Part shown: positions 18,482 to 21,786 of the stretch, piece by piece
Layout of the letters: every line of letters starts with the position of its first letter
How positions within the stretch are numbered: position 1 is the first letter of the stretch
Origin: a virus
Virus record (IMG/VR): IMGVR_UViG_3300023112_000009
Location: 61,610 to 125,609 of that record
DNA length: 64,000 nucleotides
Strand: one strand, 5' to 3'
Program-made: the position numbers and the translations under genes
Notes under the pieces: model-generated
What the model saw: the letters and a program-made list of their open reading frames with translations, nothing else
Told to the model about the DNA's origin: nothing
The model's database searches: none

Positions 18482-18892
18482 TTAGATTTTATCTCTTTTC
18501 AAGCGAATCCACCTAATTAGGTGACGCCGGGTAGTAGGGCCACGAAACTCGTGTCCATCGCCAAGTTCGCGATGTACCAAATTGTGACATTCTACGCAGA
18601 GCCTAATCGTGGGTCTTGCTGATTGTGTGGCCAATCGCTCCTCATTAGAGACAAATGACGCTTTAGGAACTAAGTGATGACGAGTAATGAGTTCGCTGTT
18701 TGACTTGAACGTTTTTAAGCAGGCCGCACACGGTATCATGCTCCTAGCGGTGTTTGAACGCACCTTTCTGAGCTTTTCACTAAGCTTCTTAATGAGAGGG
18801 CGTACGTCCTGGTTTCTGGTTCGTTTTAAAGACTGCACAATGGCATCGAGTTCAACCTCGTCCAGTTTGGTCTTGATGGCAATGTTGTCCAT
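18482..18892 (-). CDS. HNH-like zinc-binding protein
   Basis: CAAC..TRHHLVPK..LCVECHNLVH. Confidence 0.7.
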   Translation of the reverse strand: MDNIAIKTKLDEVELDAIVQSLKRTRNQDVRPLIKKLSEKLRKVRSNTARSMIPCAACLKTFKSNSELITRHHLVPKASFVSNEERLATQSARPTIRLCVECHNLVHRELGDGHEFRGPTTRRHLIRWIRLKRDKI

Positions 18893-19116: not shown

Positions 19117-20005
19117 TAGCGGCTAAGTCAAGCTACTTTCCTGTAAAAGACAACATAAGAACGGCCAGTCGAGAAGTCTTCATCTTCTACACGAACCACG
19201 ATTTGGAGAACCCAGTCGCCATCTGGGGTTTGATAGAAGTCGGCGTGAGGGATTGTAGTCATGTTATTTTTAAGCGAATCCTAATCCCTATAGAGAACAA
19301 AAGAAGTCTTACAGGAACAACCAGTAGAAAGACAGGCAGGACAGGTGTAGGCGAGGGCGTTCGTGTGACTAGAGTCTACCACGATTTTGAGACCACAGCA
19401 AGAACATTCGTACGTTTCATCTTCATTGCTTCGTTCTTCTTGATTCTTCATATTGACCACAGGTGTACACACACTCACTATAAGTTAACGGAGGGCCTGC
19501 GTAGTGACGTGGTAGGATGCTTCTGCCAGTTTCGCAGCAGCGGCAGCAGAATCAGCCGTTTCTATGTCCCTCAGGATCACAGTAAGCCTGCCCAGCCGCT
19601 CCTCAGCCGTCTTAGCACTGAGCCCTTGTTCCTTTTGTAGTAGGATCTGTTCCCATAGAAGATTGATCTCTTGTCTTAGTTGTTCTTTCATGTGGGAATG
19701 ATACGCTTTAAAACGTACTCTGTCAAGGTAAAAATCTTTTTAACTTCCAGCTTGACTTCCTGTGGTTTGAGTGTACTATGAATACTCACGCAGAGACGGA
19801 CTGCCGATGCATGAGGTGAGGGGTAGTACCCTGGATACACTGCTTGAGTGGCTGAAGTTAAACGTAGAGGATAGTCAGACCAAAGGCTTGAAATGACAGA
19901 AATGGGGTTTGCGGGTATCAAACCGTCTCATTGATGTTTTCCTTGTTTTTCCTTGACATAGGGCGTATTTCGTCGTATAATGAGGTACTTGAAAACACAT
20001 AGTGT

Positions 20006-20081
20006 CGCGGGGTGGAGCAGTAGGTAGCTCGCCAGACCCATAATCTGGAGGTCGTAGGTTCGAATCCTACCCCCGCTACCA
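20006..20081 (+). tRNA. Initiator-type tRNA-Met(CAT)
   Basis: CGCGGGG acceptor with C1:A72 mismatch, loop CC-CAT-AA, CCA; TTGACA-N17-TATAAT promoter upstream. Confidence 0.92.
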
Positions 20082-20085
20082 ATAC

Positions 20086-20965
20086 ACCAGCCATGACCCA
20101 TGAGCCCGACCGTGGCTGGTTTCGTAGGGGCAACGTAAAGAAGTGGACAACCAGGATTGGCAGCCTATCAACAATCCTGACAAAACCACAGCCGTCAGGC
20201 TGACGGAAGCGGTCGCAACAAGATCGCCCCTAAAAGGACCAGACATTAGTCTGGTCCTATTTTATAGCAAAGAAGTAAGGACGCCACGCTACTATGGATC
20301 GCTTTTGGAACAAGGTACAGAAACTACCGGGGGTCAATACCTGCTGGTTGTGGACCGCTGGAAAAGACAGATATGGATACGGACAGTTTAAGCTGGACGG
20401 TAAGGTTGTACGTGCTCATCAGGTTAGCTGGAAAATCGAGAAGCGTGTGAATCCTTCTTACTTATGTCATACTTGTGACAATCGTGCCTGTGTGAACCCA
20501 GCACACTTGTACGAAGGTAGTCACGCTAGCAACATGAGCGACAAAAAGCACCGCAACCTTACATGGAGTAAATATGACCCTCATGTGATTAGACGTATTC
20601 GTAGGAAGTATGCCGTAGGTTTTTCAAGTGGACAACTCTCGAAAGAATTTAATATCCCTAGGAGCACCGTACTCAATATTCTAGACGGTAAGCTCTGTAG
20701 GAGCACCGGGGGTCCAATTAGAGATCCTAATTTTAGATACTATGGCAATCGCTTTAAAAAAGCCATTCCTAGAAAATCGTAGCAGTGTGGCGAAACGCCT
20801 TACTATGCTCAAAATTCCATCAGTGTCAGTTCTCCCCTTACTGTATCCGGGGAGGCAGGGATGAAGCCTGCCACTTATGTCCCCTCTGGGGAACCCCGAA
20901 TGGGGTGACTTCTCCGCTCAAGGCGGCTACTCGGGTTGGGCGAAGTCACTACTCCCAACGCGGTA
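20086..20965 (+). ncRNA. Candidate structured RNA interrupted by an HNH ORF
   Basis: Many hairpins on both sides; the sequences flanking the ORF are complementary. Confidence 0.55.
20294..20782 (+). CDS. HNH homing endonuclease with HTH
   Basis: RFWNKV, CWLWTA, GYG, AHQVSW, CHTCDNRACVNPAHL. Confidence 0.92.
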   Translation: MDRFWNKVQKLPGVNTCWLWTAGKDRYGYGQFKLDGKVVRAHQVSWKIEKRVNPSYLCHTCDNRACVNPAHLYEGSHASNMSDKKHRNLTWSKYDPHVIRRIRRKYAVGFSSGQLSKEFNIPRSTVLNILDGKLCRSTGGPIRDPNFRYYGNRFKKAIPRKS

Positions 20966-20980
20966 ACAGAGTATACCCTG

Positions 20981-21286
20981 TTATTCTAGAAAGTCAAGCA
21001 AAGGATCCGAAATCTTATGCCCTTCCTGAAGTAAATTGTAATGGCCAGTGCAAAAGTTCTTGCCGTCAAGCAAAAAAGACGCTTCTTGTTTGCACCTGAT
21101 ATGGAAGCATTCCACAGGTTTTTCCAGCATTTGCGTTAAATGATCTCGCAATCGCTCGGCCTCTTCTCTTTCGAGCATACGATAGACGTAATCGGCATCA
21201 TCCGACTGAATTTCTATCCTAAGCTCTAAACGATTCTTATGCCAATCGTTTTGGACGGTGATCGTTTCTTGTAAGTACATGCCCAA
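20981..21286 (-). CDS. Hypothetical protein
   Basis: ORF with an upstream TTGACA box. Confidence 0.55.
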   Translation of the reverse strand: MGMYLQETITVQNDWHKNRLELRIEIQSDDADYVYRMLEREEAERLRDHLTQMLEKPVECFHIRCKQEASFLLDGKNFCTGHYNLLQEGHKISDPLLDFLE

Positions 21287-21451
21287 TCATACCCTTAGGA
21301 TCTAACCCTGTCAACATGTTTCTAATAGTTTCTTATACTCTATGTTATTCTTTATTTTCAAGCATCTTCTGGGGTTGGCCGTAAGGGCAACCTTATATAG
21401 TACAGAGAACGCTTGGTTTTTCTGACTTTCCGAGATTTATTTAGATTCTAT

Positions 21452-21479
21452 TTGACTTTCCAGGACTTAGAGCTATACT
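21452..21479 (+). promoter_or_regulatory. First sigma70-type early promoter of the plus-strand early region
   Basis: TTGACT-N16-TATACT. Confidence 0.75.
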
Positions 21480-21531
21480 CTCCATGTTCGATCAATGAAA
21501 CGCCCCAACGGGCACAACCAAACACAAGACT

Positions 21532-21786
21532 ATGACCACCACGAAAAAGACCACGAAAAAGAATTCCAAGCCCGTTGCCACCACTATCAAGCGAGGCCGG
21601 GGCCGTCCCGCTAGCTTCCCCGCTGACGTGGCAACCCGTGCGATGCTCTCCACGATCCCCGTTGACAGCATCACCCAATTGCACGAACTCAAGACGAAAT
21701 GGGGTGTCAACCTCAATCAAGCCCTGGCCCGCGTGCTACAACGGGCACACAAGGACACTTTCCGCTCCCGCTCGAAAAAGAGCTAA
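21532..21786 (+). CDS. Small basic DNA-binding protein (AT-hook-like RGRGRP plus putative ribbon-helix-helix)
   Basis: KRGRGRP followed by a beta-helix-helix pattern; own terminator at about 21800-21830. Confidence 0.65.
   Translation: MTTTKKTTKKNSKPVATTIKRGRGRPASFPADVATRAMLSTIPVDSITQLHELKTKWGVNLNQALARVLQRAHKDTFRSRSKKS

Follow-up and report, generated by a model that had tools for sequence, protein, structure and literature searches.

Does the nuclease gene of an uncultured marine phage sit in the loop of one large structured RNA, or does it stand between elements that are separate from each other? The question is raised by positions 20086-20965 of a stretch of 64,000 nt (the window), which covers positions 61,610-125,609 of the 125.6 kb IMG/VR virus record IMGVR_UViG_3300023112_000009. 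An original prediction made from the letters of the window had described this interval as a single RNA or ribozyme of about 390 nt, with the open reading frame (ORF) of an HNH nuclease in a terminal loop. Every helix that it listed is present in the window, at coordinates found by a sequence check; the observation is confirmed and its interpretation partly supported. In our assessment the interval is probably not one RNA but a non-coding block, conserved within a clade of uncultured marine phages, into which an HNH gene has inserted. The apparent ribozyme with its looped-out nuclease would then be a mobile nuclease gene between independent elements.

A structured RNA that is predicted to end at its own terminator

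Searches with proteins and with DNA patterns yielded ten distinct related loci, namely the window itself, L115, L003, L019, L106, L110, L111, L117, L118 and L152, with duplicates merged (L003 = L008 = L151; L019 = L033 = L122 = L150; L110 = L107 = L113). L115 is near-identical to the window, and L111 is incomplete; nine loci span the place of the pseudoknot and the minus-strand promoter described below. Exact-pattern scans gave one true locus, ten of the 11 matches of one scan being due to chance. A further scan of this kind returned 87 stretches, and BLAST of 86 loci led to L033 only, with L008 also true. Nine of 17 matches in metagenomes were true and eight were chance, all 22 matches in prokaryote genomes were chance, and an additional scan returned already known loci only. 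Among cultured phages, blastn matched nothing beyond the transfer RNA (tRNA), and tblastn with the neighbouring protein of 353 amino acids gave zero matches. These loci supplied the HNH-free homologs that the original prediction had called for, and covariation was found in both RNA motifs described here (by RNAalifold and by counting pairs), namely the 5′ element, which we call RNA-B, and the pseudoknot. The claim that the flanks of the gene are uncharacterised structured RNA with covariation is borne out.

RNA-B (about 150 nt, 20086-20230, plus strand) consists of a hairpin, P1, and a four-way junction, and is recognised by its fold z-score (-5.4 for the 5′ flank), by covariation and by its occurrence in all ten loci. 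P1 is the pairing CCAGCCATG/CGTGGCTGG, 20086-20095 with 20111-20120, in a hairpin spanning 20086-20120; it is 9-14 bp long across the ten loci and differs in sequence in nearly every one, and its loop (..CCCNUGAGCCCGAC) is near-invariant. The junction is closed by P2 (GGGG 20127-20130 with CCCC 20227-20230) and contains P3 (GUGG 20143-20146, CCAC 20186-20189), a variable P3a, P4 (20192-20206) and P5 (20209-20227); the helix CAGGATTG/CAATCCTG pairs 20152-20159 with 20172-20179. P3 changes from GUGG/CCAC to GUGA/UCAC in L152, P4 occurs as CCGU/ACGG, CCGC/GCGG, CCAU/AUGG and CCUG/CAGG, and the sixth pair of P5 is C-G, G-C, A-U or U-A. P1, P3a, P4, P5 and the terminator are retained with differing sequences in ten of ten loci. 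In an RNAalifold analysis of nine sequences, 20 of the 34 predicted pairs showed compensatory change, all eight P1 pairs among them. One helix proposed by RNAalifold, ACC-C-CCGU/ACGG-G-GGU, was rejected because it clashes with the covarying P5. Two further ideas about the P1 loop were dropped. Its variable base might complete a start codon (AUG, GUG or UUG), but three of four bases would fit and the frames are not conserved; in the window the loop could pair over 7 bp with the joining strand of the pseudoknot, but this strand varies and the loop does not.

Directly behind RNA-B the terminator scan called an intrinsic terminator of the tRNA/RNA-B unit on the plus strand (20235-20265; 10-bp stem, ATTA loop, ATTTTAT), with the hairpin GGACCAGAC/GTCTGGTCC at 20235-20258 followed by ATTTTAT. 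A hairpin with a T run is found at the same place in all ten loci, and the stems covary. RNA-B is assigned to the plus strand because of its G-U pairs (e.g. the fourth pair of P5) and these T runs. RNA-B is thus read as a separate RNA with its own predicted terminator, and it belongs to no Rfam family, HNH-free loci included. A single RNA of about 390 nt is not upheld, since the 5′ part has an intrinsic terminator of its own in every locus.

The statement that no intron, RNase P or tmRNA could be recognised holds. Rfam searches returned only tRNA for positions 19500-21500 at expect values (E) up to 10, only tRNAs over the whole window, and only tRNA at E up to 1 for six of the related loci, of which four lack HNH at this site. 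Natural HNH-free loci were used here in place of a window sequence with the ORF deleted.

An HNH gene that is present or absent at one site

The gene itself (20294-20782, plus strand) encodes a predicted free-standing HNH homing endonuclease of 162 amino acids, identified by PHROG and Pfam matches. The protein has an HNH/His-Me finger followed by a helix-turn-helix. It matched phrog_1872 with E 8e-27 and ten more endonuclease families, nine of them named HNH. The Pfam matches to HNH_3, to a His-Me finger and to a helix-turn-helix (HTH_7) are all sub-threshold (HNH_3 16.3 bits against a cut-off of 24.8 bits), as compared to 52.9 bits for HNH_3 in a paralogue from L110. Family scans of the 162-residue protein gave HNH and helix-turn-helix only and zero RuvC family, the domain that IscB carries; none of the solved structures matched in a sequence search.

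At this site, behind the RNA-B terminator, the HNH gene occurs in three of the ten loci (the window, L115 and L003), the proteins of the window and L003 being 61% identical. The remaining seven loci have repeat units in place of the gene. Syntenic loci thus differ in whether they carry the gene at this site, which lies outside any intron or intein, and of the two roles first offered for the nuclease, invader or partner, that of invader is supported. A paralogous HNH gene lies elsewhere in L110 (L110:2854-3285, also in L107 and L113), between tRNA-fMet and P1. It shares 44% identity with the window protein over the nuclease domain and matches Pfam HNH_3 with E 2.9e-14; the codons at its end form the 5′ arm of P1, and the TGA in the conserved loop of P1 serves as its stop. 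In L152 a tRNA-Thr (GGT, plus strand, L152:3399-3473) stands directly behind the RNA-B terminator, where a promoter would not fit. Because no room is left for a promoter there, transcription on the plus strand would have to pass the RNA-B terminator. The two sites used by one nuclease family, together with a tRNA at one of them, indicate that the flanks are separable modules, and from the same arrangement the region appears to be a landing place for mobile genes.

In the HNH-free locus L106, a 15-mer (L106:587-601) is identical to window 20700-20714 inside the HNH ORF and is followed by similar sequence. This could be what is left of a nuclease gene that was lost, the evidence being weak (E 0.021 in a small database). 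In L019, L110 and L111 the word GGAGCACCGGG of this match recurs as the 5′ arm of the terminator behind RNA-B. Contigs of four DNA sequencing runs contained no joint across the HNH gene, i.e. no empty site was seen there.

The ORF is bracketed by a long-range pairing of 16 bp, AGTAAGG-A-CGCCACGCT (20274-20290) with AGTGTGGCG-AAACG-CCTTACT (20784-20804), which had been the starting point of the original prediction and is real. It is present in both the minimum free energy and the centroid fold of 20082-20990, and its duplex energy is -25.5 kcal/mol, a value that 2000 shuffles never reached and that 42 of 5000 pairs of window segments with the same spacing did reach. The 5′ arm on the plus strand is a repeat unit copied in inverted orientation, as it matches the unit pattern described below on the reverse strand; within it lies the Shine-Dalgarno sequence AAGGA of the HNH gene (20277-20281). 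This arm is absent from L003 and from every HNH-free locus; the stem is lineage-specific, since L003 carries the gene without the arm.

The enclosing stem and the structured flanks would suit a self-splicing intron of group I or II with an HNH ORF in a loop, and phage group I introns with HNH ORFs do exist, e.g. I-TevIII, according to the available part of PMC2988022. The likeness to such I-TevIII-type introns (nrdB) lies in a phage HNH ORF with structured RNA flanks. Unlike them, the locus has no interrupted host gene, the upstream tRNA being intact, no exon junction and no match to an intron core; the terminator would fall inside the intron, HNH-free relatives show both flanks plus extra repeat units and not a joined exon, and the Rfam searches above returned zero introns for the window and for the six loci. 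The reading as an intron fails on these grounds, and we give it next to no credence.

A repeat array and a pseudoknot facing a minus-strand promoter

Between the two flanks every locus carries two to five copies of a repeat unit of the form (T)AGMAG-N12-13-CCCTTACT, with a period of 44-46 bp in L019, L106, L110, L117 and L118; in some loci the spacer is 100-250 bp of such units. In the window, unit u1 (GTAGCAG-N-CCTTACT, 20779-20804) includes the HNH stop codon and, at 20784-20804, the 3′ arm of the bracketing stem. Unit u2 (20817-20842), recognised by the unit pattern, is of B type (..CAGTGTCAG..CCCTTACT), with orthologous B-type units in L110, L117, L118, L003 and L152. Orthologous units (types CATGGGG, GTGTCAG and GGGTGG) are kept between phages, and units within one phage differ strongly. 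In the 125.6 kb record the pattern occurs at this locus and at one unrelated place outside the window (C1:54657).

Several explanations of the units were tried and rejected. Compensatory changes are absent from the hairpin that each unit might contain. General phage promoters would not be confined to this locus and one unrelated place in the record, and as sigma-70 promoters the units lack a conserved -35 part, the promoter scan calling none of them. A small minus-strand ORF from the first unit, with Shine-Dalgarno sequence and AUG, would encode an unconserved peptide and would lie antisense to differing things in each locus. The regular spacing and the invariant words of the units point to a site at the DNA level, and our guess is that the repeats might be an array of DNA sites for a protein, flanked by transcripts that converge on it. 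A conserved protein of 70-85 amino acids with an N-terminal GRGRPAxFP is encoded about 0.5 kb to the right of the block in every locus seen, namely in the window (21532-21786, 84 amino acids), L003, L019, L118 and L152. It is without a family match and is a candidate binder of the array.

It is very unlikely, in our view, that the 45-nt units form an RNA array, bound or cut by a protein like a type III antitoxin (a ToxI-like decoy), or an RNA sponge. A minus-strand promoter ahead of two to five tandem units, each about 45 nt long, would suit such an array, and on the minus strand the units contain AGUAAGGG, which resembles a Shine-Dalgarno sequence. However, units within a locus differ strongly while orthologous ones are conserved, no covarying stem was found, and by eye the 5′ word varies (TAGAAG, TACAAG, TAGCAG) opposite a constant partner CTTACTA. 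Rfam was negative here as well, and the ORF lists showed no toxin gene adjacent to the array, no profile search having been aimed at toxins.

To the right of the array, 20832-20893 holds hairpins (CTCCCC/GGGGAG; GGCAGG/CCTGCC, 20854-20859 with 20867-20872; CCCC/GGGG) that are specific to the lineage of the window and L115, the other loci carrying different sequence. They are followed by a hairpin t (20894-20905) and an H-type pseudoknot, together 20894-20959 and probably on the minus strand. The pseudoknot is formed by helix a, GTGACTTC/GAAGTCAC (20905-20912 with 20942-20949), and helix b, GTTGGG/CCCAAC (20935-20940 with 20954-20959), with an inner hairpin at 20914-20926. Helix b had been proposed as a possible pseudoknot, and the covariation of the two helices together bears this out. 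Covariation was counted on seven sequences, with L152 read by eye later and L117 omitted. On the minus strand, 94.2% of the cells in the four helices are paired and nine pairs show compensatory change; none of 500 shuffles was as good, and slid controls reached at most 51% paired cells. In helix b four of six pairs are compensatory and 100% of the cells are paired, in helix a four of eight pairs are compensatory. L152 shows the same two crossing helices with further sequence changes, and the pseudoknot is found in eight of the nine covering loci.

A promoter on the minus strand (TTGACT-16-TATACT, 20970-20997) is directed toward this element. It was called by the promoter scan in the window and read by eye in the other loci, and it is present in nine of nine covering loci with TTGACN (TAGACA in L003), a spacer of 16-17 nt and TATACT. 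Since this conserved promoter points into the pseudoknot, the pseudoknot is most likely the 5′ end of an antisense transcript. Five G-U cells on the minus strand would be A-C on the plus strand, as compared to one G-U cell on plus. Clean C(UNCG)G tetraloops are seen on the minus strand in L003, L110, L118 and L152, i.e. in four of the eight loci with a pseudoknot, and L118 has U6 after the hairpin on this strand. A variant, 20935 G>A, occurs in the contigs of all four DNA runs examined, in L115 and in L110; it changes the outer pair of helix b, giving G-U on minus and A-C on plus. The strand evidence is modest and suggests that the pseudoknot is probably made from the minus strand.

The pseudoknot and repeats could instead belong to the plus strand, as the 3′ part of read-through transcripts, with the minus-strand promoter making only an antisense regulator. 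We regard this as rather unlikely. The read-through required by the tRNA-Thr of L152 and the plus orientation of the HNH genes speak for it, as do 91.9% paired cells with nine compensatory pairs on the plus strand and a G-U pair in the window stem that exists on plus only. Against it stand the A-C cells in helices a and b where the minus strand has G-U, the UNCG loops found on minus only, the minus-strand promoter in all nine loci and the lack of a plus-strand terminator 3′ of the pseudoknot.

The same evidence bears on the idea of one large ornate plus-strand RNA or ribozyme, reaching from the tRNA to the pseudoknot and accommodating the HNH ORF, or a tRNA, in one of its peripheral loops, in the manner of GOLLD or ROOL RNAs near tRNAs. 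RNA-B, repeats and minus-strand promoter keep the same order and orientation in nine of nine covering loci, with the pseudoknot recognisable in eight, the block adjoins tRNA genes as GOLLD and ROOL do (within what PMC5737381 makes available on them), L152 implies plus-strand read-through, and in the window the bracketing stem is far beyond chance. We nevertheless consider such an RNA unlikely, since a hairpin and T run close RNA-B in all ten loci and the spacer may be an HNH gene, a tRNA-Thr, or two to five units, which leaves the two halves separable and without fixed geometry. The 5′ arm of the stem is missing from L003 and from all HNH-free loci, no plus-strand terminator follows the pseudoknot, no Rfam family matches, and the minus-strand promoter, the UNCG loops and the G-U cells put the pseudoknot most likely on the opposite strand.

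Transcription units, possible functions and comparison with known systems

Upstream of the block the promoter scan found a sigma-70 type promoter, TTGACA-17-TATAAT (19953-19981, plus strand), with 12 of 12 consensus matches and none other ahead of the tRNA. It is followed by an initiator-like tRNA-Met (CAT) with an encoded CCA (20006-20081, plus strand; ARAGORN, and 63 bits to Rfam tRNA). The placement of this promoter fits a co-transcription of tRNA-fMet and the 5′ flank, as had been suggested for them. The anticodon loop (20032-20038) reads CCCAUAA, with C instead of the usual U at position 33; L019 has the same loop, and L003 has UUCAUAA. A second promoter-like site, TTGACT-16-TACTAT, lies in 19752-19945, and the roughly 150 nt behind it contain no convincing ORF. 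This stretch is partly kept in L003 (80% over 44 nt), and a structured RNA at 19781-19945 was rejected (z = +0.33 against shuffles). Two loci have an element of roughly 80-170 nt that looks like a cloverleaf between tRNA-fMet and RNA-B (L118:11151-11233; L117:714-882; both on the minus strand of the locus), with an acceptor-like stem and a T-arm-like hairpin, for which ARAGORN makes no tRNA call. In L019 a tRNA match (L019:5470-5661) spans 192 nt, i.e. it has a long insert. A small minus-strand ORF at 18485-18892, 1.4 kb to the left, has a weak Pfam HNH match (E 0.0023, below the cut-off).

From this anatomy we infer the following order of events for the reading that we prefer, a conserved block with an inserted gene. 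The strong early promoter would make tRNA-fMet and RNA-B as one unit that is stopped by the intrinsic terminator. Next would come the spacer of two to five 45-bp repeat units and behind it the hairpin and the H-type pseudoknot, which the conserved minus-strand promoter faces and which would form the 5′ end of an antisense transcript. The HNH gene would have taken the place of the first units of the array. It would be transcribed by read-through of the RNA-B terminator, and its translation would be repressed as long as the Shine-Dalgarno sequence is held in the 16-bp stem with the next repeat unit. The gene may have spread by cutting HNH-less alleles of co-infecting relatives.

A number of findings weigh against parts of this reading. 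The read-through indicated by L152 could extend to the repeats and the pseudoknot. The bracketing stem is known from the window and its near-twin L115 only, where it is identical, and thus has no support from covariation; L003 has a different and weaker candidate pairing (-28.1 kcal/mol, with six of 1000 shuffles as good). The reading of the repeats as a DNA array takes its basis from absent RNA covariation and regular spacing alone. In L117 the pseudoknot is not recognisable and helix b is absent. With regard to the strand, single-sequence folding of the 3′ flank favours neither direction (z-scores of -1.8 on plus and -1.6 on minus), the wobble cells are at helix ends and come from loci some of which share ancestry, the triloops of L019 and L106 are ambiguous, the window and L115 have the loop AUUC, and the minus-strand hairpin is terminator-like in L118 alone and weakly in L019. 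Finally, no RNA run is listed among the sequencing runs searched for the locus.

As regards function, a tentative suggestion is that RNA-B, the 45-bp array and the antisense pseudoknot RNA make up one conserved functional module, in which an origin- or partition-like DNA array is set by convergent structured transcripts. GC and AT skew gave no clear origin signal, the sign change in AT skew merely tracking gene orientation. An equally tentative form of the same suggestion is a new pair of phage RNAs that would act on translation initiation beside the initiator tRNA. If such a module exists, its strong conservation would be the reason why homing endonucleases target the block repeatedly. HNH genes have invaded this clade-conserved block at two places. 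Homing endonucleases usually adjoin sequence that phages cannot afford to change, and the block is therefore probably important.

What is new here is the non-coding block itself, which has three parts and is conserved across the clade of uncultured marine phages. It adds two RNA motifs that are supported by covariation and have no Rfam family, namely RNA-B and the promoter-proximal pseudoknot, and a regularly spaced repeat array. For the RNA motifs, the closest systems for comparison are phage RNAs near tRNA genes. In T4, RNAC and RNAD are located in the tRNA gene region and are made together with the tRNAs. They are described, in the portion of PMC9697503 at hand, as phage small RNAs of unknown function, and RNA-B is alike in being a phage small RNA. 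It has no sequence or Rfam relation to them, and its fold is that of P1 with a four-way junction. The accessible text of PMC5737381 describes GOLLD and ROOL as structured RNAs whose function is unknown and which often occur in phage DNA and next to tRNA genes. Unlike the present block, with its two separable small modules on probably opposite strands, each of these is one RNA, about 580-800 nt long and rich in junctions. The covariance models of GOLLD, ROOL and HEARO (the IscB omega RNA) gave no match, only tRNA passing.

For the nuclease gene the comparison leads to the T4 homing endonuclease genes, several of which (mobE, and segB in the tRNA region, among them) have hairpins that sequester the ribosome-binding site (PMC2988022, as far as its available part goes). 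The HNH gene of the window resembles mobE and segB in being a small intergenic nuclease gene beside tRNA genes that is present or absent among relatives (PMC2988022 and PMC2330249, in their available parts). A further similarity is that the Shine-Dalgarno sequence is enclosed by a stable RNA helix when transcripts read through from upstream, reported for the T4 genes in the text available from PMC2988022 and predicted here. The difference lies in the helix, which is a local hairpin in mobE and segB, whereas here a 16-bp long-range stem closes the whole ORF (about 490 nt) and has a resident repeat as one of its arms. Judged by its sequence, the HNH part of the locus thus appears to be a homing endonuclease gene of the ordinary free-standing kind, unusual in the predicted long-range masking of its ribosome-binding site.

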